Shown here one piece after another: positions 18,469 through 33,553 of a DNA stretch of 38,973 nucleotides. The DNA is taken from NCBI GenBank assembly GCA_018221125.1, contig JAAOYC010000032.1:1-38973 (forward strand), given 5' to 3'. The notes beneath the pieces were generated by a model. It worked only from the letters and a program-made list of their open reading frames with translations, was not told the origin of the DNA and did not search any database. Position 1 is the first letter of the stretch, and every line of letters begins with the position of its first letter. Made by a program: the position numbers and the translations under genes. The stretch comes from Candidatus Woesearchaeota archaeon (GTDB taxonomy: Archaea; Nanobdellota; Nanobdellia; Woesearchaeales; WJKL01).

Positions 18469-19467
18469 TGAGATAAACGCCCGTATAAAACAAGGGATTT
18501 AACAATTAGGGGCTAAGAAGCAAATCAAATATGCACTGGTCACTGGACATGTGCCCGCAAGATATATAAATTAACTTATCTTATTAGTAAGTTATGAGTA
18601 AAGTAGATAATAAATTAGCTGTATTTCAGGGAAAACATATTAGAAAAATTTGGCATAATAATGAATGGTATTTTTCAGTAATTGATATTATAGATGCTTT
18701 AGATGCAAGTACTAGACCCAGAAAATATTGGTCTGATCTAAAAAAAAAACTTACTGAAGAAGGTTTTGAGTTGTCCGCAAAAATCGGACAACTGAAATTA
18801 GTGGCTTCTGATGGCAAATCTTACCTTACGGATTGTGTAAGTACCAAAAACACGTTTAGGATAATTCAATCTATTCCCTCTAAAAAAGCAGAACCTTTCA
18901 AACAATGGCTCGCAGAAGTAGGTTATCAAAGAGTACAAGAGATAGAAAATCCAGAACTTGCTCAGAAGCGAATGAAATCATTATACAAGGCAAAAGGTTA
19001 TTCTGATGAATGGATTGAGAAACGAGTTAGAGGTATTACAATAAGAGATGAATTGACTGATGAATGGGGTAAAAGGGGTGTAAAAACAAACAGGGAATAC
19101 TCTATTTTAACTGCAGAGATTTCTAAAACAACATTTGGTTTAACTCCTGGGGAATATCAAAAATTAAAAGGTCTCAAACACCAGAATTTAAGAGACCATA
19201 TGAATGATTTAGAATTAATATTTAATATGCTTGGAGAAGCTTCTACTACGAAGATTGCCAGGAATAAAGATGCACTTGGATTTGATGAAAACAAGACTGC
19301 TGCAAAAGGAAGAGGAGTGGTGGCAGGAGTAGCGAGAAAAGAATTAGAAAAAAGAAGTGGTGAGAAAGTAGTTAGTTCTGAGAATTATTTAGAAGCACCT
19401 GAAAAAGTAAAGAAGCTGAAGAATAAAAGAAAATCTTGAAGCAAAATTAATATAGATTTTAGTTGAT
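18469..19467. mobile_element. ~1.0-kb inserted block bounded by 44-bp direct repeats
   Basis: Contains only the Bro-N gene and its promoter; flanked by 18425-18468 and 19468-19511. Confidence 0.7.
18594..19439 (+). CDS. Bro-N domain protein (phage antirepressor-like)
   Basis: IRKIWHNNEWYFSVIDII, RKYWSDLK, ASDGKSYLTD, IIQSIPSKKAEPFKQWLA, NLRDHMNDLELIF. Confidence 0.85.
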   Translation: MSKVDNKLAVFQGKHIRKIWHNNEWYFSVIDIIDALDASTRPRKYWSDLKKKLTEEGFELSAKIGQLKLVASDGKSYLTDCVSTKNTFRIIQSIPSKKAEPFKQWLAEVGYQRVQEIENPELAQKRMKSLYKAKGYSDEWIEKRVRGITIRDELTDEWGKRGVKTNREYSILTAEISKTTFGLTPGEYQKLKGLKHQNLRDHMNDLELIFNMLGEASTTKIARNKDALGFDENKTAAKGRGVVAGVARKELEKRSGEKVVSSENYLEAPEKVKKLKNKRKS

Positions 19468-20274
19468 TTATTTCTCTATAAACTTCTGCATCCTGTTTAC
19501 AAAGTCTTCTGCTTCTTTGTAGAGTTTTTCATATTCAGGGCCTTTTATCTCTTTTATTTCCCTGTGCGTGATGCCTTTCATAAGCTTATAGAATCTGTCC
19601 ATTGTTTTTGCATATTTTGCTTCCAGCTTGTGCTCTTTGACAAGTCTTTTCTCCAGCAAGTCTCCTGCGTATTGAGGAGAAGGCGGTGTTTCGCCAATAT
19701 GCATCAATGCTGCATGGGTTGCATCAATAACAGCCCAGTATAAATCTAAAGTTGCCTGGAGTATATGCCATTTTGAGTTTAATAATGTTCTTGGAGCCCG
19801 TCCAAAATAAACCCAGACAGACTCTTTTGTTGGCTTTATCCTTCCCTGGATAAGTAATGCCTGCATTGGGTCAAAGAATCCTGTATCCAGCAATGCAATT
19901 CCATCTCTTAGGATGTTTATTGCAACAGGGTCTCCTGCCCTTAGATATTCCCAGAAAGATGTTATTGTCATTGATGTTACATGCAGACGAGTTGATACTT
20001 TTCCCAGTGTTTTTTCAACTATCAACCTATACACTTCTATTACTTCTCTTGTCATCCTTATTGACAAGTCATCCACTACAATAAGAACATCAATGTCTCC
20101 TTTCTGGCCAACAGGTGTCTTTTTTCTTGCTGCTGAGCCGAACAGAACAACTGCTTTTAAGAAATCTCCGAATTCGTTTTTTAATCTTTTTGCAAAAGAC
20201 TTTGCAGCTGCAATGTCTTCATTCGGATATTTAACTATGTTAGGATGAGCGCCTTTTTTTAGTGTGAATTTCAA
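19468..20274 (-). CDS. minimal nucleotidyltransferase-HEPN fusion protein
   Basis: LFGSAAR...GDIDVLIVVDD Pol-beta motif plus a helical HEPN-like C-terminus (YWAVIDATHAAL); TTG start with GAGGGAG RBS. Confidence 0.85.
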   Translation of the reverse strand: MKFTLKKGAHPNIVKYPNEDIAAAKSFAKRLKNEFGDFLKAVVLFGSAARKKTPVGQKGDIDVLIVVDDLSIRMTREVIEVYRLIVEKTLGKVSTRLHVTSMTITSFWEYLRAGDPVAINILRDGIALLDTGFFDPMQALLIQGRIKPTKESVWVYFGRAPRTLLNSKWHILQATLDLYWAVIDATHAALMHIGETPPSPQYAGDLLEKRLVKEHKLEAKYAKTMDRFYKLMKGITHREIKEIKGPEYEKLYKEAEDFVNRMQKFIEK

Positions 20275-20338
20275 ATCTATCTCCCTCTTTTATTGAAATT
20301 AGCATTAAATAGTATTTAAAAGTTGTGTTTTAATAAGA

Positions 20339-20496
20339 TTTACACAATGTGCTTCTTTCAGAACCACAAGTATAAAACTTTAGGTAAGTTTTACACAATT
20401 TGCTTCTTTCAATAAAGTTCATATCACTTTGCTCATGAACATACTTCATTTCAAAGAAATGAAGAACCACAAGTATAAAACTTTAGGTAAGTTTTA
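20339..20496. repeat. intergenic A-B-A'-hairpins-B repeat
   Basis: 22-bp unit at 20339-20360 and 20390-20411 (1 mismatch); identical 34-bp unit at 20360-20393 and 20463-20496; hairpin CTTCATTTC-AAA-GAAATGAAG at 20444-20464. Confidence 0.9.
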
Positions 20497-20504
20497 TATA
20501 TAAG

Positions 20505-20522
20505 TGAGACAAATTGGTCATA
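20505..20522. promoter_or_regulatory. candidate operator TGAGAC-N6-GTCATA
   Basis: Lies just downstream of TTTTATATA; matches the sites at 33461 and 33536. Confidence 0.5.
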
Positions 20523-20540
20523 TGAACATCTTAAAAATAG

Positions 20541-20572
20541 AAAGGTTTAAATAATTGGACTATTTAGTCCAA
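20541..20572 (+). promoter_or_regulatory. BRE/TATA plus perfect palindrome (likely MNT autorepression operator)
   Basis: AAAGGTTTAAATA at 20541-20553, then TTGGACTA-TT-TAGTCCAA at 20555-20572. Confidence 0.65.
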
Positions 20573-20585
20573 ATAGATTGACCAA

Positions 20586-21116
20586 ATGATGCAACTAAAT
20601 GAACTATTAGGAAACAAGGAATTGTTCAGGATACTTAATTTCTTTATATCTAATCCTACAAAAGAATTTTCTCAGACAGCGGTGCGAAAGAAGATAGGAA
20701 TCTCTAAAACTACCTTGATTAAATGGATAGATAAGTTAGAAAAAAATGAGTTATTGAATCTGAGAAAAATAGGAACATCAAACTTGTATAAGCTAAGCAG
20801 GGAGAATGTTATCATCAAGCAGATAAAGATATTAAAGAGTCTACTGCAACTAGGGCCTTTGAAAAGTATTGATGCAGAAATTTATGTATATGGAAGTGCT
20901 GCAAGGGGGGAAGATGCAGAAGATAGTGATATTGATATCATGTTGATAGGAAAATTGAACAGGAAAGATGTAATTGAAGATATTGACAGGCTGGCTAAAA
21001 AAATAAAACGAAAGATAAGTTTCAAGATATTTGATAGGATAGAATGGTCAAAGATTGCAAGAGAAGATAATCCTTTTTATGAAAGAGTTGAAAAAGATAA
21101 GATAAGATTAGGATGA
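20586..21116 (+). CDS. wHTH-MNT nucleotidyltransferase (antitoxin-like)
   Basis: N-terminal wHTH; YGSAARGED..DSDIDI motif. Confidence 0.9.
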   Translation: MMQLNELLGNKELFRILNFFISNPTKEFSQTAVRKKIGISKTTLIKWIDKLEKNELLNLRKIGTSNLYKLSRENVIIKQIKILKSLLQLGPLKSIDAEIYVYGSAARGEDAEDSDIDIMLIGKLNRKDVIEDIDRLAKKIKRKISFKIFDRIEWSKIAREDNPFYERVEKDKIRLG

Positions 21117-21535
21117 ATATAAGAAAAGCGATTGAGGAGAGATTTTTAGAAAAAATTGAGATGGATAATGAATTGATTAGCAAGGAATTTGATGAGTCTG
21201 CCTATGATTTTGAAAAAGCACAAAAAGCTTTTGAAGAAGAAGATTACAAGTGGAGCATTGTGAAAAGTTATTATTCTGTATTCCATTCAGCAAAAGCAAT
21301 GTTGTTTGCATTAGGATTGAAAGAAAGAAAACATTTTGCAATAAGTATAGTATTAGAAGATCTTAACTTAAGAGGCAAATTAGAATCAATCTATGTAAAT
21401 GATTTTAAAGCAGCTAGTTCTGCAAGAGAAGATGCTGATTATCATTATTCTTATTCAAAGAAATCTGCACTGCATATTTTAGAGATTGCAGAAGAATTTA
21501 ATGATAAGATGGAAAAATTAGTAAAAGAGCTGTAA
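21113..21535 (+). CDS. HEPN domain protein (toxin-like partner of MNT)
   Basis: YYSVFHSAKAML and REDADYH motifs; ATGA overlap with the MNT gene. Confidence 0.88.
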   Translation: MNIRKAIEERFLEKIEMDNELISKEFDESAYDFEKAQKAFEEEDYKWSIVKSYYSVFHSAKAMLFALGLKERKHFAISIVLEDLNLRGKLESIYVNDFKAASSAREDADYHYSYSKKSALHILEIAEEFNDKMEKLVKEL

Positions 21536-21536
21536 A

Positions 21537-22184
21537 ATGGCTAAGGAAGATCTAGAGAAAGTATTGAAGAAGAAAGTTGAGCCTTTGCTAGAAGAATCAA
21601 TGCACAAGATTTTAGGTGTAACTATTTCTGAGTTTGGGAAAGATATCACTGACAGTATTGAGAAAAATCCTTTGATTGCCTATGATATTGATATTAGATT
21701 GGGTTTTAAGGCAGCAAAAAAACTGTTCAAGAAGCAGTTCTTGACAAGGATGCTGCAGACTAATTTTGGAAACATCTCTGCTGTTGCAAAAGTAACTGAA
21801 TTAGACAGGAGAAGCGTGCATAGAGCTGTAAAGGAATTGGGAATAGGAATAAAAGGGATTAGAAGAGATATGATTAAAGCTGATTATTATCGTCGAGAAG
21901 CTGTTGGAGAGATATTGAAAGGGACTTTGGACAGTTATAAGACAGTGATCAGGCCTGGAAAGCTAGAGAATATGTATGAGAATGTTGACAAGATAAGCTT
22001 TGATATTGTGAAAGAACTACCTGCAATAGAGATGAGCTGGGATGCTGCTGAGAAGATGTTTGAAATCCAGTATTTTGAGAAAGCACTTAAGGAGAATAAA
22101 GGCAATGTTTCCAGAACAGCGCGTAGAATAGGTTTAAGATATGAAACTTTGCATAGGAAGCTGAAGAAGTTAGGGTTGAAGTAG
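21537..22184 (+). CDS. tandem Fis-type (HTH_8) DNA-binding protein
   Basis: GNISAVAKVTELDRRSVHRAVKELG and GNVSRTARRIGLRYETLHRKLKKLG. Confidence 0.8.
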   Translation: MAKEDLEKVLKKKVEPLLEESMHKILGVTISEFGKDITDSIEKNPLIAYDIDIRLGFKAAKKLFKKQFLTRMLQTNFGNISAVAKVTELDRRSVHRAVKELGIGIKGIRRDMIKADYYRREAVGEILKGTLDSYKTVIRPGKLENMYENVDKISFDIVKELPAIEMSWDAAEKMFEIQYFEKALKENKGNVSRTARRIGLRYETLHRKLKKLGLK

Positions 22185-22185
22185 A

Positions 22186-22776
22186 TTAAGATGAATATTT
22201 TTGAATGAATTCTTCTACTTTGCTGTTGAAAAGATTTTCAGTTTCTTGTTCTTGTTGTTCTTGGATCTTCTTATAATGCTTTACAATAGGAATATGAAGT
22301 ACAGCAGGTATAATCCCTCCCACAATAGCTCCTAAAACTGAACCAGCTGGGGCAGCAACATAAGCAATATTCTGGCTTTCTGTTAAGTAGTCAGCTAAAG
22401 TTCCTGCACCGATTGCTCCTCCAATATAACCAGCTACTGCAAATGTTATGCATGATGCTATAGCACTATATCCTGGAAGAGTGGGTGTGTCTTCTATATT
22501 TTCTTTAAGCATATCCCTTAAGTTTGGCAATTCTGATAATTCTTTTCCCCAGTTAGGAATTGAAAGGGTTTTTTCACTAAGTGAAGCATTCCTTATTGAA
22601 TGATAATGAACTATTTGACAAAACTCTTCATAATAATCTTTACCAAGTCCTTTAAGTTCATTTGCAACATGAGATTTAAGATTTTCTAAATCTGATTCTT
22701 CTAAACCCCATGAATCGGAATTTAATCTAAGAGAATCCCAAGCCTCCATTGCTGGTGTAATTATTTCCATTAACAT
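22186..22776 (-). CDS. ORFan array gene 10; Gly/Ala-rich two-helix membrane protein
   Basis: Hydrophobic GxxxG-rich hairpin (AVAGYIGGAIGAG; AGSVLGAIVGGII). Confidence 0.8.
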   Translation of the reverse strand: MLMEIITPAMEAWDSLRLNSDSWGLEESDLENLKSHVANELKGLGKDYYEEFCQIVHYHSIRNASLSEKTLSIPNWGKELSELPNLRDMLKENIEDTPTLPGYSAIASCITFAVAGYIGGAIGAGTLADYLTESQNIAYVAAPAGSVLGAIVGGIIPAVLHIPIVKHYKKIQEQQEQETENLFNSKVEEFIQKYSS

Positions 22777-22779
22777 TTT

Positions 22780-23064
22780 TTATTCTCCTTCAGTCATATC
22801 TGCCAATAATATTGCAAGTCCTCCAACAACTTCATCTCTTTCTCTGAGTCTCTGTTCATATCCAAAACGGTTTTTAGGGTTAGGATTATTGAATTTAAAT
22901 GTAACATTTTGAAAATAGTTTCCACAATCCTCTGCTTTTACTTCTACGTAATTTCCATAAGATTCTAGCCGTCTACCACTGTGTAGTCTGTTTGGATGTT
23001 GTGTAAGATAGAATCTTACCTGATCCATCTGTTCCCAATTCAATCCATCTACTTTTATTTTCAT
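22780..23064 (-). CDS. ORFan array gene 9 (94 aa)
   Basis: Likely start ATG 23064; ends EGE* inside the junction motif. Confidence 0.75.
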   Translation of the reverse strand: MKIKVDGLNWEQMDQVRFYLTQHPNRLHSGRRLESYGNYVEVKAEDCGNYFQNVTFKFNNPNPKNRFGYEQRLRERDEVVGGLAILLADMTEGE

Positions 23065-23068
23065 CTTT

Positions 23069-23557
23069 TTATTTATCACTGCCTAAAATATCTTCAACCC
23101 CTTTTGATAAAGGTCTTTCAACAATACTTCTTTCTATCTCTTTTGCTTCCTCAGAAGTTATTGGTTCTGTCCAAAAATGTTCGCCTATACTGGCTTTCAT
23201 TTGCTTTACTACTTCATCAGCATATAATTTCCTTATTGCTCCACAAGGTTGATCTCTGCCCTCTTTGTATAATGCAACATATTCTTCTGTTATTTTTTCT
23301 TCGCCTCTTAATAATTTCAGCACTGCTGCAATCTTTTTAGGATTACGTTCACTTATCTTATCCATCAGTTCGCCTCTTTCTGACAGTTTTTTGCCTACTA
23401 ATAAATCTGCAATAGGTGGATTATGATAATATAGTGAAACAGGTTTTCCATCTTCATAGTGTACTATCACTGCAGTTGTCTCTTCTGGGATTAAACCAGT
23501 TTTGTCTGTGCCATCTATTGCATACGTTTCCTTAACTAATCTAGATTCTATTGTCAT
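23069..23557 (-). CDS. ORFan array gene 8 (162 aa)
   Basis: Start reassigned to ATG 23557, which follows TGAGGTTAAAA and removes a 34-bp overlap. Confidence 0.75.
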   Translation of the reverse strand: MTIESRLVKETYAIDGTDKTGLIPEETTAVIVHYEDGKPVSLYYHNPPIADLLVGKKLSERGELMDKISERNPKKIAAVLKLLRGEEKITEEYVALYKEGRDQPCGAIRKLYADEVVKQMKASIGEHFWTEPITSEEAKEIERSIVERPLSKGVEDILGSDK

Positions 23558-23565
23558 TTTTAACC

Positions 23566-24444
23566 TCATGGGTCTAACATAAACAATCTTTTTCTCCATT
23601 TAGGGTTTAGTAAAACATCTCCGTAATTTTCTACAAGTCTAACTGAATCTTCAAATAGATTATCTGCTTGGATAAGCAAAGATGGCGCATCATAAGATAA
23701 GCAAGGCCCATCAAATTCTTGCAGCATTTCAACTAATTCAGATTTAGCTTTGTCTATTCCTGGATTATCTGGTGCATTGATTTTTCCCAGACATACTGTA
23801 CCTACGCAAGATTGCGTTATAGGAGATTCTCCATTTATTACATGGAAACCTGAGTAAATATCAGGCAATGTGCTTTTTAGTTCATGTAATTTCTCATGCA
23901 TTTTTGCAAGTGTTTCTTTTCTGTCAATAACTAGAGCTTCACATTCTTCTACTCTGCTAAAATTCTCTTCTGGATTTTCCAAGACTCTTTTAAGAGTTCT
24001 ATAAAGACGTAATGGTGAAGGGCTATCCTCCAAATCTTCAATATTTGCTGCATCAATGATATAACCCACTCTTAAAAGTCTTGCAGCGCTGTTAGTGACT
24101 TCCCTATTACAAGCATCACCAAGACCAAAACGTCTTGCAATTCTTTCAGCAAGTTCCCTTTCCTCATCAGTAGCTCCTGGATAATTTTCAAGCAAATCTA
24201 AATAAGCGCTTAAAGGCTCTGTGTATTCTTTTTTTGATTTGCCTTCTCCATCTATAAGAACTTTCATATCACCGGGCTTTACTTTTAATTCTCCTGCATG
24301 TTCTTTGACTATTCTGTCTACTTTTCTGCCGATATCAACTACATCCTGGGATTTACAGCTAAAATATACACTGTCTACCCAAAACTGATCATTTGCATCT
24401 ATGCAATATACATTTGGTTTTACTACATCAAATTTTATTTCCAT
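23566..24444 (-). CDS. ORFan array gene 7 (292 aa)
   Basis: Long ORF preceded by AAAGGTGAATAAAAATG. Confidence 0.8.
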   Translation of the reverse strand: MEIKFDVVKPNVYCIDANDQFWVDSVYFSCKSQDVVDIGRKVDRIVKEHAGELKVKPGDMKVLIDGEGKSKKEYTEPLSAYLDLLENYPGATDEERELAERIARRFGLGDACNREVTNSAARLLRVGYIIDAANIEDLEDSPSPLRLYRTLKRVLENPEENFSRVEECEALVIDRKETLAKMHEKLHELKSTLPDIYSGFHVINGESPITQSCVGTVCLGKINAPDNPGIDKAKSELVEMLQEFDGPCLSYDAPSLLIQADNLFEDSVRLVENYGDVLLNPKWRKRLFMLDP

Positions 24445-24446
24445 TT

Positions 24447-24947
24447 TTATTCACCTTTATCAAGAAGAGCTCCATAATTAATCAACCAGGGATGCTCTTG
24501 TACAAATTCATTGAATAATTCCTTGAATCTTTCTCCTAATTCCTCGAATTGCTGGTAATATAATTCAGTGTGTCTTTTAATTGCAGGCGTGGTATGTTCT
24601 GGATTCTGGACTTTAATGCAGTTCACACCCATTTCTCTTGCTGATTCTATAATATACTGCTCAAAATCTACAAAAGACTTGTCTTCCTGAGATGGATATT
24701 CATATTCTTCGACTGCCATTGTTACATATTGACTTACGTGTGAGGCTACTGACACCTCTTTGCTGCCAATGTTTACTTTATTTCCCGCACCAATGATAAC
24801 TCCAATAAGTGCCTTAGCCTCATAGCCTACTCCCTTTTCAGGATCAAATCCATAAACAATAACACTTGGTCTTAATCCACCTTCGAATTCTACCTTATAT
24901 TCTAAACTAATTTCTTCTTTTCTTGGTTCTTGTGTTTCTTCTGTCAT
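24447..24947 (-). CDS. ORFan array gene 6 (166 aa)
   Basis: Starts MTEE, ends DKGE*. Confidence 0.8.
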   Translation of the reverse strand: MTEETQEPRKEEISLEYKVEFEGGLRPSVIVYGFDPEKGVGYEAKALIGVIIGAGNKVNIGSKEVSVASHVSQYVTMAVEEYEYPSQEDKSFVDFEQYIIESAREMGVNCIKVQNPEHTTPAIKRHTELYYQQFEELGERFKELFNEFVQEHPWLINYGALLDKGE

Positions 24948-24950
24948 TTT

Positions 24951-25373
24951 TTATTCACCTTTTGAGTCAGGTGCTTTAAGTTCAGCTTTTGCGTCAAGTA
25001 CTTGAAGTTCACCTGCATATTGTCTTACTCTATAATAACCATCTTTGAAATCGCAAAAGAATTCTTTTACCATATCTACATAATCATATCCTATAGTAAC
25101 TCCTAAACCAAATCCCACTCCTAGAGTCAATAAAGTTGCTAAATCACTGCTTTCAAATGCATAGTGGGTAAAAGTTGCGACACCACTTAAAACAGCAACA
25201 GGCAAAGCAACTCCGCCAACTGCTTTTAGAAAGCTCTTGTTTCTCTCGCTTTTAGCTTCACCTAAACAATCTTCTATTCCTTCTCTCTTCTTAAGATTAT
25301 CCAAAGCTTGATCTAACTTTTCTGTATCAATTTTTTCATTGAGGTTTGAATAGTCTCCTTCTGGACATTTCAT
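24951..25373 (-). CDS. ORFan array gene 5; two-helix membrane protein
   Basis: Hydrophobic hairpin with LGVGFGLGVTIG; ends KGE*. Confidence 0.8.
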   Translation of the reverse strand: MKCPEGDYSNLNEKIDTEKLDQALDNLKKREGIEDCLGEAKSERNKSFLKAVGGVALPVAVLSGVATFTHYAFESSDLATLLTLGVGFGLGVTIGYDYVDMVKEFFCDFKDGYYRVRQYAGELQVLDAKAELKAPDSKGE

Positions 25374-25843
25374 TCTTCATCACCTACTTTTGTTCTAGAA
25401 ACATAAAACTGCGCTGTTGCGTGCATAGAATATTCAACCTTTTTTGATTTTTCCCAAAGGTTGTTGAAAATATAATCATCTATAACATCTGGTTTTATAT
25501 TACCCATTATATCACTATCTTCTGTGCGTGCATCAAGATCTACTGGAGGTCTGACTTCTTGTTCAACAAAATTAACACTAAAATAAGGAACTCCTAATTC
25601 TTCTGCCATACGCATTGAAGAACGAAATATTTCTCCTGAGCCATATTCCTCCCTGATTCTTTTAGAGGGCATAGATACAATATAATTTCTTGGACCTAGA
25701 TAAGCAGAGCTGACCATTGTCAATTCATCTGGTTCAATCTTGTCATCAAGTGTTTTTGCAAAGTAGAAACGATCTAATTCAGCTAGTCTGAATACTCCGT
25801 CTTTCAAAACAATTAATTGTGGTTTTGGTTTTTCTTCTGTCAT
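25370..25843 (-). CDS. ORFan array gene 4 (157 aa)
   Basis: Starts MTEE; ATGA overlap with the next gene. Confidence 0.8.
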   Translation of the reverse strand: MTEEKPKPQLIVLKDGVFRLAELDRFYFAKTLDDKIEPDELTMVSSAYLGPRNYIVSMPSKRIREEYGSGEIFRSSMRMAEELGVPYFSVNFVEQEVRPPVDLDARTEDSDIMGNIKPDVIDDYIFNNLWEKSKKVEYSMHATAQFYVSRTKVGDEE

Positions 25844-25850
25844 TTTTTAT

Positions 25851-26477
25851 TCACCTGTATCCTAATCCTACTATTGGAAGTGCATATTGCACTATAACAT
25901 TTCCTTGTTCATCCAGAACCTGGAAACCTAGAATTGAAACTGATTTACCTAAAAATTCTTTCAGAGAAATTAAATTTAATTTTTCTTCTGGAAAGCGTGG
26001 TTCTAAAGATGATTCTAGTTGGTTAAGTTTTTCAAGTGGTGGATCCTTTATGAGTTCAAAATTATCGTATGGTTCATTTTCAGGGAGTAGATCTTTTTTT
26101 TCTATTTTTTCAAGCAGTGGAATTCTTTTTTCTATTTTATCTCTGTCAAAAAACTCTTCAAGAGAAGATAAATTTTCTTCTCGATAATTAGGTTGGTCTT
26201 TTATGACTAATTCAGGAAAGTGTTTAAGTCTTATATCATCATATAAATCAAGTGAATAAACAACTACTCTTGCTCCTAAACCAATTCTTAATGGAATATC
26301 CATTCTAAAAGGCTCTTCATGCCCTTCCAGTCTGAACTCCAGGCTTCCCTGATGTTTAACAGCATAGCTATCCATACCTAAGAATTTTTTAGCTTCTATC
26401 TGCTCATGAGATGACTCCTGTACAACTCTTCCTTCTGTATGAGGAATTTCCTTACCATCTAAATATAGTCTTTCCAT
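25851..26477 (-). CDS. ORFan array gene 3 (208 aa)
   Basis: Junction motif on both sides. Confidence 0.8.
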   Translation of the reverse strand: MERLYLDGKEIPHTEGRVVQESSHEQIEAKKFLGMDSYAVKHQGSLEFRLEGHEEPFRMDIPLRIGLGARVVVYSLDLYDDIRLKHFPELVIKDQPNYREENLSSLEEFFDRDKIEKRIPLLEKIEKKDLLPENEPYDNFELIKDPPLEKLNQLESSLEPRFPEEKLNLISLKEFLGKSVSILGFQVLDEQGNVIVQYALPIVGLGYR

Positions 26478-26480
26478 TTT

Positions 26481-26861
26481 TTATTCACCTTTATCAATAC
26501 CAATTCCATATATTTGAATAGAATCTCCATATGCTGTAACTTCTCTTCCTTTTAGAACAGACAAATCTTCTCCTAAAGTTCCTGTATCGCAAAGAAATGA
26601 AGCAATCCTCTCTAAGCCTGCGATTGGAAGACTTGCATGGGTACCAGATTCAGATATTTCTACATATAATCCAGATTGTTCAGAATCAATCTTTTGCCTG
26701 TCACATTTAATTCTTTCAACAACTCTGCCTGGGCCAATTTGGAAAAAATAAGCATCAGCAATTGTTGCTTCTTGTGATTTAGCATTAGCTAAATCTGCTT
26801 CAGTAATATCTCTATTTGATGGTGTGTATACCCTTTGATTGTTGAATTCGAATGTTTTCAT
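26481..26861 (-). CDS. ORFan array gene 2 (126 aa)
   Basis: Ends DKGE*. Confidence 0.8.
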   Translation of the reverse strand: MKTFEFNNQRVYTPSNRDITEADLANAKSQEATIADAYFFQIGPGRVVERIKCDRQKIDSEQSGLYVEISESGTHASLPIAGLERIASFLCDTGTLGEDLSVLKGREVTAYGDSIQIYGIGIDKGE

Positions 26862-26864
26862 TTT

Positions 26865-27236
26865 TTATCCCCATCGCTCTGATTTTTCACTGCTGATATC
26901 TGTCCTACCAGGATTCATTTTAGAATATCCAAAAGTAATTAGTATATCCTCTCTAGCTTTTCTTAACTGTTCTCTGTCTTCTCCTAATAGAACTAATGCA
27001 GTCAATACATCACCATCCTGAGCACCATGAACATACTGGGTTCCATCAAAATGATCTTTTCTAAATACAGCATCTCTAAATTCAACTTGGCAGCCATATT
27101 GTTCAGCTACAAAACTAAATGTTGGCCTTATTCCACTTCCTTTGAGATATCTATTATCTAATACTGCGTCTGTTGAAACGTGTCCATAAACTACTATTTC
27201 CTGTAATGTTTTTTCTTGAGTTTCATTTGTTTCCAT
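26865..27236 (-). CDS. ORFan array gene 1 (123 aa)
   Basis: Preceded by AAAGGTGATAAAAAATG and a promoter at 27299-27309. Confidence 0.8.
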   Translation of the reverse strand: METNETQEKTLQEIVVYGHVSTDAVLDNRYLKGSGIRPTFSFVAEQYGCQVEFRDAVFRKDHFDGTQYVHGAQDGDVLTALVLLGEDREQLRKAREDILITFGYSKMNPGRTDISSEKSERWG

Positions 27237-27277
27237 TTTTTATCACCTTTTGTTGTTATTTAATCACTTCTCAGTAA

Positions 27278-27386
27278 GTATATAGATTTCAAGCATATGT
27301 ATAAACCTTGTTATTATAGAATATAGATTAGTATATATGTATATACAAGCGAAAGGTTTAAATAGTTCTAGGATTTATCTATACAT
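27278..27386. promoter_or_regulatory. divergent promoters with repeated TATAGA/TATATAC boxes
   Basis: AAGGTTTATAC (minus, 27299-27309) and AAAGGTTTAAATA (plus, 27352-27364); TATAGA occurs several times. Confidence 0.6.
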
Positions 27387-28286
27387 ATGAAGAGAAAAAT
27401 CGTAAAACAAGGGGCAGCAACTATGACTATTAGCCTGCCTGCTCCATGGATTAAGAAATTCAGCTTAAAAGAAGGAGATGAGCTTAATATAGAGGAAGTT
27501 GGAAGCAGTATCAATATAACAACTGAGAAGGCTATGGGCAAGAGAAGGATAGAGCTGGATGCAAAAGAGCTTGGTTTTTTCACTAAAAATGAGCTAGGGC
27601 ATCTGTATTTTCTTGGTTTTGATGAAGTGATTATTCATTTTAAGAATAAAGAAGTGCTAAACCAGATAAAAAGCAGGCTGCCTGACTGCATTGGATATGA
27701 GATTATAGACCAGACTGAGGATAAGATAGTGATAAAAAGCATATCAAGCGAGTTAGAAACAGAATTTGACAATATCTTAAGAAAGGTATTTCTGATGCTA
27801 AAAGAGATGGGAGACAGTGTCTATGATGCATTAAAAAACAATGAATTTTCAAGATTAAAACAAATAAGAGATATGGAATCAATAAACAACAAATTTACTG
27901 CTTTTTTAACAAGATTGTTGTCTAAAAAAGGATATAAAAGGCCAGAAAGAAGCCTGCAGGCGTATGACATGATGCAAAACTTAGAAAGAACTGCTGATGT
28001 GTACAAGTATATATGTGATGATTTTATAAATAGGAAGAAAGCAGTTGATAAAGATGTTTTAGAATTATTAAACAAGATAAATGATTATTATAAACTGTTA
28101 TATGAAATCTTCTACAAGTTTGATCCTGAGAAAAAGACAGCATTATATGGAGACAGGCATGCATTGAAAGAGCAGGCTGATAAATTCCTGAAATCAGGCA
28201 AAGAAGTTGTTCTAAGCCATCATTTGATTGAGCTGTTAGAAAGGATATATAACACAGCTGGTTCTTATTTAGCTATGAGTATTTAA
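27387..28286 (+). CDS. archaeal AbrB-PhoU family regulator
   Basis: MKRKIVKQGAATMTISLP..WIKK..LKEGDEL AbrB domain; LYFLGFDEV, IGYEIIDQ and LERTAD PhoU-like helices. Confidence 0.88.
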   Translation: MKRKIVKQGAATMTISLPAPWIKKFSLKEGDELNIEEVGSSINITTEKAMGKRRIELDAKELGFFTKNELGHLYFLGFDEVIIHFKNKEVLNQIKSRLPDCIGYEIIDQTEDKIVIKSISSELETEFDNILRKVFLMLKEMGDSVYDALKNNEFSRLKQIRDMESINNKFTAFLTRLLSKKGYKRPERSLQAYDMMQNLERTADVYKYICDDFINRKKAVDKDVLELLNKINDYYKLLYEIFYKFDPEKKTALYGDRHALKEQADKFLKSGKEVVLSHHLIELLERIYNTAGSYLAMSI

Positions 28287-29860
28287 GCTGCTGGAACTAC
28301 AACAAGAGGTTCTTTATATTGCTTGTATGCTTTGTAGTTTTCTGCTGTTTGTTTTAGTATTTCAACAGGAGATTCTGCTGCAAAGTCTACTAAAGAAGTT
28401 CTAAGATTTGAAAGCATTCCTGCTTCAGCTGGATTTTGTGTTAAAGCACCGTCTATCATGCTGATTGCTTTTTCAAAATATAATTTGCATTTTTGCATCT
28501 GTTCATCTTTTACTTTTGGATGTTCTTTTGCAAATATGATTGCTCCTCCGCATTTGTCAATCTGGTCATTGATCAAGGAGTATCTTAATGCTGTAGATAA
28601 CCAAGTATTAGGAAGCAATAATGGAGTTTTATGTTCTGCTGAGTGTTCATTATGTTTGTCAACATACATGTGCAGCATATCTCTTGAAAATTCAGCTGGG
28701 TCCATGTCAGACCTGTCTCTTATTACAGAGTTTGTGAATCTTGCCAAGTCATCAAATTTCCTTCCTATTTTTGCTGCTTCATAATCTACAATAAAGCATT
28801 CTTCTTCTGACATTCTGCAGTTTCCTATGTGGAAATCTCCGTGTGTGAAATGTCTTGGGTCAAATGTTTTAGTAAAAGCAGAGTAAGCCTGCATTAAATC
28901 GTGAGCTTGAGGACTTACGATTACAGAATTACCTGATACAGGCGTTACAAATCTGCTTCTAAATTGAGTATTATAGTCAGTTAGTTCTAATGACAAGCCA
29001 TAATGTTCTCTTAATTCTGGCAAGTTCAATGAAGCCAGAACATGGATCTGTGATATCTTGTCTAAAGCTTTTCCGCATGCATCTAGAACTTCTGAGTCAG
29101 AACCTTGTTTTACAACATTTCTTAATTCCTGTTCACCAACATGATTAATAAGCAATCTTGTGTTTCTGTCATAGATTGTGTGTGTCTTGATTCCTAAATC
29201 ATTCAAGAATTGAGGAAGAATTTCTTCTTTTTCATCTGCATCTTTTGCAACAATATGTAATTGTTTTAATGCTCCATTTTCTTCATATTCAAATGTTAAG
29301 ATATCAACATTATGCTGGGACTGGTCTGCTAAGCTTACTATTCCTGAATATCTTATTCCAGGATGCTCTTGTGCAAGCATTGCTAATACTGGCTTGTATT
29401 CATCTGGCAAAGAACTTTCTGCAGTTTCTAATGAAACTGCTGCTTTTGTTTTAGGTGCTTCTGATTCTTTTTTAACAGAATAACCGGCTTTAGTATAATT
29501 ACCTAAAAGTTTTTCTAATGATTCAATGTTTTCTTTGTTATTAAATATGTATTCCTTCATTTCTTCTTTGTCATAGGATGTGTACTTCTCTTTAAATTTA
29601 GAATATTGTTCTATTTGAGGGATATAATACTGATTGAATTCTTCTGGATTTTCCTCTAATTGGTTATAAACAATAGAATCTAGATCTTTTATTTTATGAT
29701 TTAGACTATTATGGTTTATATTCTCTTTTTTGATTTTCTTAGAGTTTTCATTGAGAAAAGAACTGTAATAGATCTCAATATTTTTTAGAATACTAGGTTC
29801 ATAATTATTTTCCTTCTTGCTAAAACCATCTATAATTATTTCTTCTAGTGATTTATCCAT
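28283..29860 (-). CDS. APH/choline kinase-like phosphotransferase
   Basis: IVAK lysine, THGDFHIGN Brenner motif, IVDYE, DDLARF; long charged N-terminal extension. Confidence 0.85.
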   Translation of the reverse strand: MDKSLEEIIIDGFSKKENNYEPSILKNIEIYYSSFLNENSKKIKKENINHNSLNHKIKDLDSIVYNQLEENPEEFNQYYIPQIEQYSKFKEKYTSYDKEEMKEYIFNNKENIESLEKLLGNYTKAGYSVKKESEAPKTKAAVSLETAESSLPDEYKPVLAMLAQEHPGIRYSGIVSLADQSQHNVDILTFEYEENGALKQLHIVAKDADEKEEILPQFLNDLGIKTHTIYDRNTRLLINHVGEQELRNVVKQGSDSEVLDACGKALDKISQIHVLASLNLPELREHYGLSLELTDYNTQFRSRFVTPVSGNSVIVSPQAHDLMQAYSAFTKTFDPRHFTHGDFHIGNCRMSEEECFIVDYEAAKIGRKFDDLARFTNSVIRDRSDMDPAEFSRDMLHMYVDKHNEHSAEHKTPLLLPNTWLSTALRYSLINDQIDKCGGAIIFAKEHPKVKDEQMQKCKLYFEKAISMIDGALTQNPAEAGMLSNLRTSLVDFAAESPVEILKQTAENYKAYKQYKEPLVVVPAA

Positions 29861-29890
29861 AAGTCCTCATGAATTTAGAGGTATTACTCC

Positions 29891-29931
29891 TTTATAAACC
29901 TTTCGGTTTTTCACTACTAAAGGGTGGTTAC
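29891..29931 (-). promoter_or_regulatory. extended promoter motif shared with 35558-35597
   Basis: Minus strand reads GTAACCACCCTTTAGTAGTGAAAAACCGAAAGGTTTATAAA. Confidence 0.65.
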
Positions 29932-29935
29932 GTTA

Positions 29936-30727
29936 TTACTGCAGTGATCCTTCTAATATTTTTTCTAGTTTTCTAAAATTCCACCAGTTTCTTATATGTC
30001 CTTTAACATCTATTAAAGAATTAATAATTTCAATGTCAATATATGCCTGCATATCTAATTTTACATGAACTGTTCCTGTTCTGTAATAAGCTGAGGAGTC
30101 TCTTTTTAATAATTCTTCAACATCAATATCAAGTGTCATAGAAGGGTCAATCTTTTTTCCGTTTTTTATTGTTAAAGCAGTTGTTTCCCATGGAATCCAT
30201 TTACCGTTTGAATAAAGTTCAACCCATGCATGGCAAACCCATCCTTTTATATGTTTACTATAACTAAGACCTTCTGCAAGTCTAACAAGATTTCTCATCT
30301 TAGGGCATTCTGTTTTTGTAGATAATACAACAAACATTGAATAAGTCAGTGCTGCATATTCATCACAATCTCCTTCTCCTTTTTTAAAACTTCTTTCTAA
30401 ATCAAGCCCGTCTGTCATTTCATAATCCTGGATTGTTTCTGCAATCATATTAGCATATTTAAGCCATCCAATTGTTTTTTCTTCTAAAGAAGGGTTTTCA
30501 TTTTCATAAGGAAAATCATATTTTGAGAAATGAAAAAAAGATTCAGTTTTTTTATTGATTGTTATTGTAGGTTGTGATTGTTCTGCTTTTTTTTGGAGAT
30601 AAAAGTAATCAATGGGTATGCTTGAAGCAACATTTGCAATATAAAAAAGTCCTAAAAAACCTATTATGGATCTTACATATTTTCTAAATCTATTTTTTTT
30701 CTTAAGTTTCTGTTCTAAGTCATCCAT
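29936..30727 (-). CDS. membrane-anchored transglutaminase-like cysteine protease
   Basis: GDCDEYA, HAWVEL, WIPWET triad; N-terminal TM; start ATG 30727 lies 21 bp after TTTATAAA. Confidence 0.85.
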   Translation of the reverse strand: MDDLEQKLKKKNRFRKYVRSIIGFLGLFYIANVASSIPIDYFYLQKKAEQSQPTITINKKTESFFHFSKYDFPYENENPSLEEKTIGWLKYANMIAETIQDYEMTDGLDLERSFKKGEGDCDEYAALTYSMFVVLSTKTECPKMRNLVRLAEGLSYSKHIKGWVCHAWVELYSNGKWIPWETTALTIKNGKKIDPSMTLDIDVEELLKRDSSAYYRTGTVHVKLDMQAYIDIEIINSLIDVKGHIRNWWNFRKLEKILEGSLQ

Positions 30728-30767
30728 GCTTAAACACATATTAAATGATTTATAAAGATTGGCGTAT

Positions 30768-30812
30768 TATGAAACATTGCATAGAAAGCTGAAGAAATTA
30801 GGGTTGAAATAG
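30768..30812 (+). repeat. orphan 45-bp copy of the 3' end of the Fis-like gene (direct repeat with 22140-22184)
   Basis: 41/45 identical; reads YETLHRKLKKLGLK*. Confidence 0.95.
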
Positions 30813-31571
30813 TTACCTTACTCCAGCAACATTTCTTGAAGATTTTCTGCTTTCAGAAATAATATGAATTTCTCCACTTGAGTCTATTTGAAGAGAGACT
30901 TTTCTTATATATTTGGAGGGGTCTCTTAATACATTATTATCTTTAACAAAGATGGTTGCCAATGTAGGATACATTACTGGTCCGTTTGGGATTTTTAAAA
31001 CAGTAGTTTCGTATGGAATCCATTTTCCCTTTAATTTGATTTCAAGATAAGCATGTTCACCCCCTGAAACGCCTTCAGTAAATTTAGCATAATCCCTTAA
31101 TTCAGTAAGTTTTAGTCTTTCAGTTATTGCAAAGAACTGTGTGTATGTCATTTCAGCATATGTTTCGCAATCTCCTTTGGCTCTTTTTAATGCTTTATCT
31201 GGGTCATAGCCTCTTGTTACTTCATAATCTATTCTTGAGTCTACGATTATATTAGCAAGTTTTAGACATTCAATTGTTTTTCTTTCTAATTCAGAATATT
31301 TTCCAGTTGCTTCAGGAGTGCTAAACCCATTTTCAGCATAATATGATAAATCAATACCTGAAAAACCTATTTTTTCCTGCAGTTCTTTTGACTGGACCCG
31401 CTCTGCTCTTCTATTAAGGCGTGCTGCTTGTCTTCTGCTTGGAATTACATTGTATTTTTGGTTTACATTGTGTAAATAACAGCCGCTGGAAATAATCGCA
31501 GCTGCTGAAAGAATCCATGGAGTTGCAGCATGGTCCCAAATATATTTGACAGTTTCTGTGAACTTTCCCAT
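30813..31571 (-). CDS. transglutaminase-like cysteine protease (paralog)
   Basis: GDCETYA, HAYLEI, WIPYETT; N-terminal hydrophobic segment ending SSGC. Confidence 0.85.
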   Translation of the reverse strand: MGKFTETVKYIWDHAATPWILSAAAIISSGCYLHNVNQKYNVIPSRRQAARLNRRAERVQSKELQEKIGFSGIDLSYYAENGFSTPEATGKYSELERKTIECLKLANIIVDSRIDYEVTRGYDPDKALKRAKGDCETYAEMTYTQFFAITERLKLTELRDYAKFTEGVSGGEHAYLEIKLKGKWIPYETTVLKIPNGPVMYPTLATIFVKDNNVLRDPSKYIRKVSLQIDSSGEIHIISESRKSSRNVAGVR

Positions 31572-31602
31572 AATAAAATAATGTTTTAGTAATTTATAAA
31601 CC

Positions 31603-31740
31603 TTAGGGATTTAAATGTCTAGTAGAAAATAATTTCATTACTGAAAGATATGTGCCTACATCCTTAGAAAGTTTTTGCAGAGCATCAGCAATTCCTTCTG
31701 CCACAAAACCATCTATTGATTCTGTACTGAAAACTCCCAT
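31603..31740 (-). pseudogene. 45-aa ORF or truncated gene
   Basis: MGVFSTESIDGFVAEG... with TTTATAAA about 22 bp upstream; its stop overlaps the next gene's BRE/TATA. Confidence 0.45.
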
Positions 31741-31774
31741 AAAGATAGTAAATTTAAGGTTTTTTATAAAGCTT

Positions 31775-33400
31775 TTAGAATTTGATAAAAAATCCTGCAT
31801 TGATTGATTCTGTTTCTTCTGGATCTCCTCCATAATCTTCTTCTTCTCTTTGGTAATTAACAGTAAATCCTTTTTTTCCTGAATTTATATAGAGTCCTGC
31901 AGTAATGCCTTGTTTATCTGGGCAGAATTCATAATCAGAAACAGTTTTGTATATTCCTAAATCTATTCCAATATCCTTGCTGCCTATTTTTACATCTGCT
32001 CCAAACTCTTTTTCCCATGGCCTGTGCATAAAATAAGATTCAACTGAAAGATTTGCTTTATTGAACTTGACAAGAGCTCCTACTCCTGCTTCATAAAGGC
32101 CTGGTTTGACATGTTCTGCTCCAACTTCATAAAAATCAGCAAACTGGACAACAACATATGGCTTGATATCTGCTGCTTCTGTCTTTGCATTGTAAGAACC
32201 CACAGCTCCAATCATCCATTCTTTATTAAGCATATCATCAGCTGTCCTGATTAGAGTAGCGGCAACCTTTCCTCCTATGCTAAATCCCTGTTCATTATTT
32301 GTAGACATAGATGAACTAATAGTTAATCCATATACGTCATTATTGTCTATTTCTAAGTCATGATGGATTTTTCCATAGATTAACCCTGCAGTCATGTCAC
32401 TGTCCATATCACTTTCTGATGATTTCATTGCATATCCAAAGTGAATCAAATCCAGGTGTTTTAATGGAGAAGACTCACTTCCTCTTACTGTTCCTATTTT
32501 TGCAAAAAAGCCGTTATGATTTAATTTAGCTGAATCAACATAGTCTCCTTTATCTAAGGTGATTATTGTACCTTTTTCCTCTTTAACTCCATGAAGCAGT
32601 AAATCTTTAAGAGGCTTGAAACAAGGATCATAATCCAGGAAATCAAAAAGATGCTTCCCATCATCTGTAATCAGCTTGTATTTCATTTTACCGTCTTCTA
32701 AAAACATATGCTCAAATGAAGCTGTTCCAATATTTTTTTGATAAGCTTCAAGAGTTTTTTTAACATTGTTTGTATTAGTCAATAGAATATGTTCATAATC
32801 AATAACAGCAAGTCCATTATCCAGTTTTACCAATGAATAAAGATGGCCTTTTCCTTTTCTGTTTCCTGAAATTGCTGCAGATTCCATGCCCAGATCATCT
32901 GCAAGCTTTTCAATGAATGAATGAATATGTACGCAGTCTCCAATTGGTCTTTCATTTCCAGTGTTTAATGAATACTGCAATGCTGAAAAAAATGAGTTTT
33001 GAGAAACTAATTCGTCTTCTGATGTTTCATAATTAAATTCCTCTGCAAATCCTGCAATAGCTGCAAACAAAGCAATGTTTTGGCTGTCTGAAAGTGTTCC
33101 AGCTCTTTGCACAAGCTCCTGATATGAATTGATGTTATTGTCTCTTATATCATTCATTACATCTTCTACCTGAATTTCTTCTGGATTTGTTAAAAAAAGG
33201 ATATTTGGAACAAGGTCTAGCTGCGACATTCCCCTTATATATGTTGAATCTCCTGTTACATAACTTGTTTTTTTTGGCTTTGTTTCTGTCTTATAATTGA
33301 CTTTGACTTCTATTGATTCTTCAGAAGCTGCACTAGTGATAAACATACCTGCTGCTAGTACTGCAGCTGCTATTCCCTTGACAATGCTTTCTAATCCCAT
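31775..33400 (-). CDS. secreted transglutaminase-like protein with beta-strand-rich C-terminal half
   Basis: Signal peptide (..TSAA/S); GDCVHIH, GHLYSLV, VIDY triad; alternating-hydrophobic strands ending NAGFFIKF. Confidence 0.75.
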   Translation of the reverse strand: MGLESIVKGIAAAVLAAGMFITSAASEESIEVKVNYKTETKPKKTSYVTGDSTYIRGMSQLDLVPNILFLTNPEEIQVEDVMNDIRDNNINSYQELVQRAGTLSDSQNIALFAAIAGFAEEFNYETSEDELVSQNSFFSALQYSLNTGNERPIGDCVHIHSFIEKLADDLGMESAAISGNRKGKGHLYSLVKLDNGLAVIDYEHILLTNTNNVKKTLEAYQKNIGTASFEHMFLEDGKMKYKLITDDGKHLFDFLDYDPCFKPLKDLLLHGVKEEKGTIITLDKGDYVDSAKLNHNGFFAKIGTVRGSESSPLKHLDLIHFGYAMKSSESDMDSDMTAGLIYGKIHHDLEIDNNDVYGLTISSSMSTNNEQGFSIGGKVAATLIRTADDMLNKEWMIGAVGSYNAKTEAADIKPYVVVQFADFYEVGAEHVKPGLYEAGVGALVKFNKANLSVESYFMHRPWEKEFGADVKIGSKDIGIDLGIYKTVSDYEFCPDKQGITAGLYINSGKKGFTVNYQREEEDYGGDPEETESINAGFFIKF

Positions 33401-33423
33401 AGAAATAAGTTATTTTAGAGCAA

Positions 33424-33553
33424 TATAAACCTCAGTTGTAGTTATAAGTACAACAAAGGATATGACTTTTTTGTCACAGATTTGGATAGTTTTATACACT
33501 AGTATTTATAAGTCTAGAAATCATATATACTATAGTGTGATATTAGTGTCACA
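33424..33553. promoter_or_regulatory. divergent promoter region with three palindromes
   Basis: GTTGTA-N8-TACAAC (33435-33454), TATGAC-N6-GTCACA (33461-33478), TGTGAT-N6-GTCACA (33536-33553); TATA boxes near 33424 (minus) and 33505 (plus). Confidence 0.6.

Follow-up and report, generated by a model that had tools for sequence, protein, structure and literature searches.

Mobile integrons are built from an IntI tyrosine recombinase, an attI site, a Pc promoter and attC sites (imperfect palindromes of ~60-120 nucleotides, nt), and flexible genomic islands and integrative elements may target the 3' ends of genes. Operons coupled by termination-reinitiation need overlaps or very short gaps between genes, and such coupling is enriched among the subunits of complexes (Huber et al. 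2023, PMC10666635; Huber et al. 2019, PMC6728339). In T4-type phages, orphan genes of variable, hyperplastic regions are flanked by the short repeated signals termed PeSLs, promoters with terminator stem-loops that act in transcription; these signals are proposed to recombine with one another although no dedicated recombinase is involved, and mini-circles and PeSL-bounded indels were shown experimentally (Arbiol et al. 2010, PMC2839356). Here we analyse an array of ten orphan genes, g1 to g10, within a window of 38,973 nt, the stretch of contig JAAOYC010000032.1 from a Candidatus Woesearchaeota archaeon (assembly GCA_018221125.1) that was examined. The array is probably a single polycistronic orphan operon with termination-reinitiation junctions, placed in a hypervariable slot behind a conserved platform.

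Like the termination-reinitiation operons of those studies (PMC6728339, PMC10666635), the array consists of genes on one strand that overlap by 4 nt or lie a few nt apart, with a Shine-Dalgarno sequence (SD) in the upstream open reading frame (ORF) and a stop codon beside the restart codon. Those operons usually show distances of -4 or -1 nt and encode conserved complex subunits, whereas the array has mostly gaps of +2 to +8 nt, orphan genes and a near-invariant junction sequence. With mobile integrons the array shares a conserved promoter-proximal platform and co-oriented, unrelated, mostly promoterless genes whose content varies between relatives; unlike them, it has no integrase on the contig, no attI and, with gaps of 8 nt or less, no attC, its platform being the divergent promoter of a regulator and its repeated unit a ~16-nt module of ribosome-binding site and stop. 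As in flexible islands, the site is empty in a congener, the end of the target gene is duplicated as a direct repeat and the neighbours are toxin-antitoxin-like, but there is no integrase and no tRNA target, and composition is host-like. On contig C15, the genome carries a second array, of nine genes behind tfb, that also has GGTGAAT[AG]...ATG junctions between orphans that are replaced in relatives, with the break at the first ATG; it differs in having the 3' end of the tfb gene as its platform, and the two gene sets have no sequence similarity. The short repeated expression signal flanking orphans in variable regions recalls the PeSL cassettes (PMC2839356), although here the signal is translational and the host is a cellular archaeon.

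The array and its repeated junctions

The source genome (G000), that of a small DPANN archaeon, comprises 964,591 bp on 68 contigs at 35% GC, in which 1077 gene calls were made. It was compared with relatives of which G001 and G002 belong to the same genus and G007 and G010 share one other genus; G001, G005, G007 and G010 are unpublished genomes. Ten co-oriented ORFs on the minus strand tile 27236-22186, with gaps from g1 to g10 of, in order, 3, 3, 7, -4, 3, 2, 8, 4 and 3 nt:

26865..27236, minus strand: g1, acidic orphan of 123 amino acids (aa), the operon's first gene, preceded by junction J0 in the 5' untranslated region (UTR)
26481..26861, minus strand: g2, orphan of 126 aa, J1 upstream, C-terminus IDKGE-stop
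25851..26477, minus strand: g3, orphan of 208 aa, its stop being the TGA within the next SD
25370..25843, minus strand: g4, orphan of 157 aa, N-terminus MTEE, ATGA overlap with g5
24951..25373, minus strand: g5, orphan of 140 aa, two hydrophobic segments, C-terminus DSKGE-stop
24447..24947, minus strand: g6, orphan of 166 aa, N-terminus MTEE, C-terminus LDKGE-stop
23566..24444, minus strand: g7, 292 aa, conserved C-terminus LDP-stop, followed by a non-consensus junction, TGAggttaaaaATG
23069..23557, minus strand: g8, orphan of 162 aa; a longer ORF begins at 23599
22780..23064, minus strand: g9, orphan of 94 aa; a longer ORF has a GTG start at 23079; C-terminus MTEGE-stop
22186..22776, minus strand: g10, orphan of 196 aa, two hydrophobic glycine-rich segments, the last gene

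A sequence-only reading of this DNA had claimed ten co-oriented genes without recognisable family and with gaps of 8 nt or less; all of this was borne out, on the minus strand, with none of the ten proteins reaching the Pfam cut-off. The starts of g8 and g9 are ambiguous, the public gene call for g8 being the 162-aa form. All ten proteins are acidic (pI 4.7-6.1) and eight are soluble, while g5 and g10 each have two hydrophobic glycine-rich segments. Codon-usage scores of the ten genes fall between the 32nd and 77th percentile of the 1077 calls, which is typical of the host. The stop of g10 lies 1 nt from that of a convergent HTH_8 gene, and a 30-nt tandem duplication (80%) in g3, at 26077-26136, gives an internal protein repeat of 10 residues.

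The ten genes are joined, and the first is preceded, by the following junctions:

27248-27234, minus strand: J0, 5' UTR before g1, AGGTGATAAAAAATG, read as aaaaGGTGATAAAAAATG
g1/g2, minus strand: J1, ggggaTAAaaaATG, without a clear SD
g2/g3, minus strand: J2, gataaaGGTGAATAAAAAATG
g3/g4, minus strand: J3, acaGGTGAATAAAAAATGACA
g4/g5, minus strand: J4, GGTGATGAAGAATGA
g5/g6, minus strand: J5, aaaGGTGAATAAAAAATGACA
g6/g7, minus strand: J6, gataaaGGTGAATAAAAATG
g7/g8, minus strand: J7, TGAGGTTAAAAATG
g8/g9, minus strand: J8, GTGATAAATAAAAAGATG
g9/g10, minus strand: J9, GGAGAATAAAAAATG

The typical junction is made up of the 6-nt SD AGGTGA, the stop of the upstream gene, a spacer and the ATG, and all of its bases outside SD, stop and start are A. 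An SD of at least 5 nt was present at seven of the nine internal junctions as well as at J0, in agreement with the earlier statement that SDs are embedded in the upstream ORFs. AGGTGA is complementary to the canonical ...GAUCACCUCCU end of the 16S rRNA, and the remainder of the motif has no rRNA pairing. We dismissed the idea of an unusual 16S tail to match GGTGAAT, as the 3' end, read in family member G007 (the source assembly holds no 16S), is the canonical GGATCACCTCCT. Where the module ends in ATGA, as at J5, it stops all three frames, through a TGA in the SD, a TAA and a TGA overlapping the ATG. The SD-internal TGA is used by g3, the TAA by g2, g5, g6 and g9, and the ATGA type by g4 (J4); the similar ends that had been reported for unrelated proteins were read as IDKGE, DSKGE, LDKGE and MTEGE, each before its stop.

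Two pairs of junctions are parts of longer repeats:

24924..24960, minus strand: copy at J5 of a 37-nt repeat, including AGGTGAATAAAAAATGACAGAAGAAA
25820..25856, minus strand: copy at J3 of the 37-nt repeat, 92% identical to the J5 copy, 26 nt of it exactly
24444..24476, minus strand: copy at J6 of a 33-nt repeat, including the final six codons of g6
26478..26510, minus strand: copy at J2 of the 33-nt repeat, including the final six codons of g2, 85% identical to the J6 copy

The 26-nt identical repeat first noticed across J3 and J5 is thus real and forms the core of the 37-nt pair, with both g4 and g6 beginning MTEE, and the one-indel difference described between J2 and J6 comes down to a single A.

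Orphan status was examined for all ten proteins with profile collections, and PHROGs and PADLOC gave no assignment (0/10) except a weak PHROGs match for g5 (E 0.0078). Five of the ten (g3, g6, g7, g8 and g10) were searched in large databases or 300 genomes. There was no relative of g3 among 1.84 billion representatives and none of g6 or g8 among 5.8 billion clusters; g10 had none in 300 genomes of the order, except a marginal 72-aa match (E 1.2e-4), and its ESM Atlas matches were unnamed clusters only. Only g7 had relatives, in two related clusters at 34-38% identity, and these are solitary genes in Pacearchaeota and metagenome contigs, with AT-rich DNA and no SD upstream; none of the other nine array genes lay near them, and no relative of g7 was found in viral contigs. 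As the g7 relatives are solitary and the other searched genes have no relatives, the array is a mosaic and not a conserved pathway. Each array protein cluster has a single member on a single contig, and none of the ten genes recurred in the fetched loci of relatives or in the other arrays examined. All-against-all BLASTP within the array gave a best pair at E 0.058, with no paralogues elsewhere in the genome either. Blastn of the array against 41 relatives returned only matches of 45 nt or less, the best of which (in G005) falls within a gene for an RNA polymerase subunit and was discarded as due to chance.

Conservation of g7 reaches the very end of the protein (F288, D291, P292), and the junction that follows is built on the gene's own TGA. 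A structural model of g7 made from a 4-sequence alignment (predicted local distance difference test, pLDDT, 67.8) had no Foldseek match better than E 0.049, and VIA-align returned only helical hairpins (Z up to 6.5).

The junction motif in the genome and the order

The pattern GGTGA[AT][AT]AAAAA?ATG was found at eight sites in the 965-kb genome, five of them at starts in the 5-kb array, while TAAAAATG and TAAAAAATG have 125 and 69 genomic occurrences. About a quarter of gene starts (264/1077) have an SD of at least 5 nt, and the 258 tight co-oriented junctions genome-wide show varied SDs (GGAGG, GAGGT, AGGTG) and varied spacers. GGTGAAT stands at 7 of the 15 tight junctions of the two orphan arrays versus 3 of the 243 others (Fisher 5e-8), a contrast that is partly circular, since the second array was found via the motif; the present array alone contributes 4/9. 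Identical runs among 1830 pairs of GGTGA-led starts outside both arrays had a median of 5, a 99th percentile of 11 and a maximum of 18, compared with top aligned runs within the array of 26, 18, 16 and 14. The suggested identity beyond the SD comes down to the longer repeats of J3/J5 and J2/J6, and by our own estimate their extra length is only weakly significant.

Among 301 genomes of the order, 28 contain the exact 16-mer AGGTGAATRAAAAATG, most of them a single time (a reversed control gave 0), and the source genome carries four copies, the highest number in this sample. The full motif or a one-off variant is also present at housekeeping sites, namely before aEF-2 and at the Rrp41/Rrp42 exosome, Ham1/HIT and NadE/NUDIX junctions, and in G010 the exact motif joins two purine-synthesis genes. 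At two such places, C68 ~13948 (from an unknown 126-aa gene to aEF-2) and C21 ~1296 (from Ham1 to HIT), the sequence is GATAAAGGTGAATAA, so that the upstream proteins there also end in ...DKGE-stop. The motif can thus come into being and be kept simply as a signal for translation, not as a dedicated recombination site, and its presence at stable housekeeping junctions means that a recombination role is not needed to explain it.

Equal conservation of the motif in ribosomal-protein operons was not seen, the junctions of S13-S4-S11-RpoD-L13-S9-RpoN being heterogeneous; those of purine, NAD and redox operons are heterogeneous too, and the motif is much denser in the array. The motif is a generally good translation signal, and its density in orphan arrays is the unusual feature.

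The regulator platform, the variable slot and the island

The array faces a divergently transcribed regulator across a short control region:

27387..28286, plus strand: AbrB-PhoU regulator (AbrB of the SpoVT/MazE fold), divergent from the array
28283..29860, minus strand: APH-like kinase of 525 aa, convergent with the regulator, with a 4-nt overlap
27237..27386: divergent control region, 150 nt between array and AbrB-PhoU, with a 5' UTR ending in J0
27350-27364, plus strand: TATA-like box, putatively for leaderless AbrB-PhoU
27307-27296 and 27289-27279, minus strand: TATA-like elements, putatively for the array
27311-27344: 34-nt element with core TATACATATATACTAATCTATATTCTATAATAA, between the TATA-like boxes facing both ways

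The closest orthologues of AbrB-PhoU are in G010 (77%), on contig C19 of G007 (63%) and in G093 (60%), with only paralogues of 33-34% in the same-genus G001 and G002, and at the orthologous loci of G007, G010 and G093 the array genes are different ones. In promoter and 5' UTR, G007 and G010 were identical at 53/60 and 49/60 positions, up to and including AAGGTGAATGAAAAATG; past the ATG of this sequence the alignment was at random level and the proteins were unrelated. In G010 (locus L053, contig C92, ~4320-4360) the first junction is followed by an ORF of 8 codons (MNKRRNEK-stop) whose TGA overlaps the next ATG; this ORF either encodes a leader peptide or is a scar left when a cassette was lost, and the gene after it has a GGAGG junction of its own. 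G007 has an array of four genes on C19 and three more arrays on C45, each beside an AbrB-PhoU paralogue, all using the same junction with array-specific spellings, and no Pfam family was found in the array proteins of G007 and G010 (0/15). Between any two arrays there was one paralogous cassette pair, with both arrays in G007. Behind tfb in the source genome, the DNA is homologous to G001 and G002 (81-82%) as far as the ATG of the first array gene and no further, which is a weaker case, with only ~15 nt between stop and ATG. The original proposal of a cassette-shuffling array therefore holds in part: genes behind the conserved platform do differ (in G007, G010 and G093), but the motif is also found at housekeeping junctions. 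These data support an array that behaves as a series of interchangeable, mutually unrelated genes lined up behind a constant expression platform, and cassette-like turnover is likewise supported.

The 34-nt element matches at 33/34 (G000), 34/34 (G007) and 34/34 (G010) positions, in two genera, and at 29/34 in G093, from another family; it has no second copy in G000, and the flanking proteins are just 60-77% identical. It is most likely an operator of AbrB-PhoU, and we put it forward as a candidate.

The multi-copy AbrB-PhoU family was present in 119 of 151 genomes of the order, with six matches in the source genome, and across 42 loci a divergent upstream neighbour was found at 33 and a convergent downstream neighbour at 36. 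The convergent partner is usually of ~450-500 aa, often overlapping by a few nt, and is APH-like here and in G007:C45. A kinase homologue was the partner at 6/44 loci, close orthologues only, and is co-conserved with the regulator in G010 and G093; the kinase as a universal part of the module was rejected on this count. The first 19 kb of G007:C45 (L056, 1-19000) hold three AbrB-PhoU paralogues, each divergent from an orphan array, with a Fic-domain gene between arrays, and this three-array region has no DNA counterpart in the congeneric G010 beyond short motifs.

Array and regulator are part of a larger island flanked on one side by the HTH_8 gene:

22185..33460: island of 11.3 kb, with the array, regulator, kinase, two transglutaminase-like genes and a 541-aa gene
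22140..22184, plus strand: direct repeat copy 1, 45 nt, 3' end of the HTH_8 (Fis-type) gene
30768..30812, plus strand: direct repeat copy 2, 91% identical, displaced HTH_8 gene end

DNA comparison showed the island to be absent from the same-genus G001 and from G005; in G001 no more than 2 nt lie between the HTH_8 stop and the sequence homologous to window position 33461 onward, and G002 has three other genes at the island's position. The 45-nt repeat brackets 22185-30812 (8.6 kb), with the array, regulator, kinase and one transglutaminase-like gene, and of its two copies the distal one resembles the G001 gene end more closely than the one within the gene does. On sequence grounds, the repeat and the likeness of its distal copy are the signature of an insertion that would have supplied a new gene end. 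Neither the segment nor the 39-kb contig holds an integrase or transposase, the genome's two PF00589 matches lying on C2 and C33.

The two transglutaminase-like genes are tandem paralogues (29936-30739 and 30813-31571; 75% identity over a stretch of 75 nt) with the displaced HTH_8 end between them, one within the repeat-bounded segment and one outside. Directly upstream of HTH_8, 18594-21535 encodes a Bro-N gene and then three genes of nucleotidyltransferase/HEPN type (MNT/HEPN-like pairs), and across the family the variable slot is bounded on its left by conserved nucleotidyltransferase and HTH_8 genes. An element at 29881-29910 and 31583-31612, also on many relatives' contigs, was considered as a mobile repeat and rejected, as it reads as a promoter with B recognition element and TATA box (BRE/TATA); on the coding strand it is GAAAGGTTTATAAA (~30-60 nt), upstream of minus-strand genes and common to the family. 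The window also encodes a form-III RuBisCO, TrmB regulators and MNT/HEPN pairs, and contains no Rfam families or tRNAs.

Explanations for the array and its significance

For the polycistronic operon that we favour, the proposed mechanism is that one promoter in the 150-nt divergent region, shared with AbrB-PhoU, would drive ten lineage-specific genes, that AbrB-PhoU would regulate them via the 34-nt element and that ribosomes would pass from ORF to ORF by termination-reinitiation. An SD of 5-7 nt, mostly AGGTGA, would act from the last codons of the upstream gene, with the stop 2-8 nt before the ATG or within ATGA, and AAAGGTGAATAAAAAATG would be the locally optimal solution to SD, stop and start. 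The C-terminal tails of orphans would be unconstrained and free to become ...KGE-stop, and the junctions may be uniform for this reason; g7, whose C-terminus is conserved, has a deviant junction. The platform (regulator, promoter, leader and first SD) would be kept, with the genes behind it replaced wholesale among relatives. The repeated junction is then mainly a strong ribosome restart signal, and is not proven as a recombination site. The products, eight acidic soluble proteins and two small membrane proteins, probably serve as accessory factors in conflict or in interaction with a host, and would be produced in fixed proportions under a sensor-regulator. Several observations weigh against this account. 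The exact consensus is far more frequent in orphan arrays than in conserved operons of high expression, a difference for which selection alone is no obvious explanation; the spellings are array-specific (TAA here, TGA in G007:C19), which resembles copying within arrays; two repeat pairs run 10-18 nt past the SD-stop-start into coding sequence; and the first genes of G007 arrays, which have no upstream ORF, keep a stop-like TAA or TGA in the spacer.

Some of these features would be expected if junctions of 16-37 nt served as short-homology sites at which genes are swapped junction-to-junction, possibly via small circles, a process we regard as rather unlikely. The 37-nt direct repeats at J3 and J5 enclose exactly two genes as a unit of 896 bp and those at J2 and J6 bracket four genes (2034 bp), the top junction similarity within the array exceeds all 1830 background pairs, and junction spelling variants are array-specific. 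Homology breakpoints fall at the ATG of the first junction in two independent platforms, although this is equally expected from selection for a kept expression signal. The G010 junction, 8-codon ORF and second junction could be a scar, the paralogous cassette pair is common to two G007 arrays, and a junction ending in ATGA would terminate any upstream ORF in all three frames; a precedent is given by PeSL-mediated shuffling and mini-circles in T4-type phages (PMC2839356). However, none of the ten genes is in any other array examined, the motif also stands at stable housekeeping junctions, and identity beyond the core motif is weakly significant. No junction-to-junction indel, circle, joint or variant was seen in one sediment run of low depth (X1, probably the source sample; ~4-5), for which contigs only were available, which covers the region piecewise and which is uninformative on population variation and circles; a second run contained almost nothing. 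One X1 contig shares only 24432-24464 (J6), with other flanks. That a 16-nt module, extended to 26-37 nt by flanking codons, doubles as a recombinase-free splice point for orphan genes is similarly doubtful. If it did, the J3/J5 repeat around g4-g5 would be the footprint of one insertion, and the system would be a translational-signal analogue of integrons and PeSLs in a cellular genome.

The location of the array would be accounted for by a mobile element of 8.6 kb that inserted in the HTH_8 3' end with array, regulator, kinase and one transglutaminase-like gene as cargo, the junctions reflecting the element's history, and this we hold to be unlikely. The 91% direct repeat around 22185-30812, the empty sites in G001 and G005, a distal copy nearer to the G001 gene end (as expected if a replacement gene end was brought in) and the island-typical MNT/HEPN pairs and Bro-N agree with it, as do regulator and kinase orthologues in another genus (G007, G010) and not in the same-genus G001 and G002. 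Against it, tyrosine recombinases are on C2 and C33 and no integrase or transposase is in the segment or on the 39-kb contig, codon usage is host-typical, PHROGs gave no matches, and g7 has no relative in viral contigs. The tfb array has the same junctions with no such repeats known there, the same neighbourhood of regulator and HTH_8 in G007 suggests an old resident island and not a recent insertion, and the uniformity of the junctions is left unaccounted for. A single duplicated unit, whose junctions and end codons were retained while the gene bodies diverged beyond recognition, is a highly improbable origin. It would fit the MTEE start and 37-nt repeat that g4 and g6 share, the YG...DKGE common to g2 and g6, and the two glycine-rich hydrophobic segments in both g5 and g10, but the best all-against-all BLASTP pair reached only E 0.058, lengths span 94-292 aa, and g7 has full-length stand-alone relatives in other genomes.

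Little is understood of how the many orphan genes of DPANN archaea arise and turn over. A conserved platform of AbrB-PhoU, putative operator, leader and SD with fully different gene sets behind it points to a defined and reusable slot for expressing accessory genes. Should the junctions serve in exchange as well, they would form a minimal gene-capture system without a dedicated recombinase; even without a role in exchange, the near-perfect module of three-frame stop, SD and start is a natural portable coupling element. The arrays mark sites in the genomes of these symbionts that code for lineage-specific, probably interaction-related proteins.

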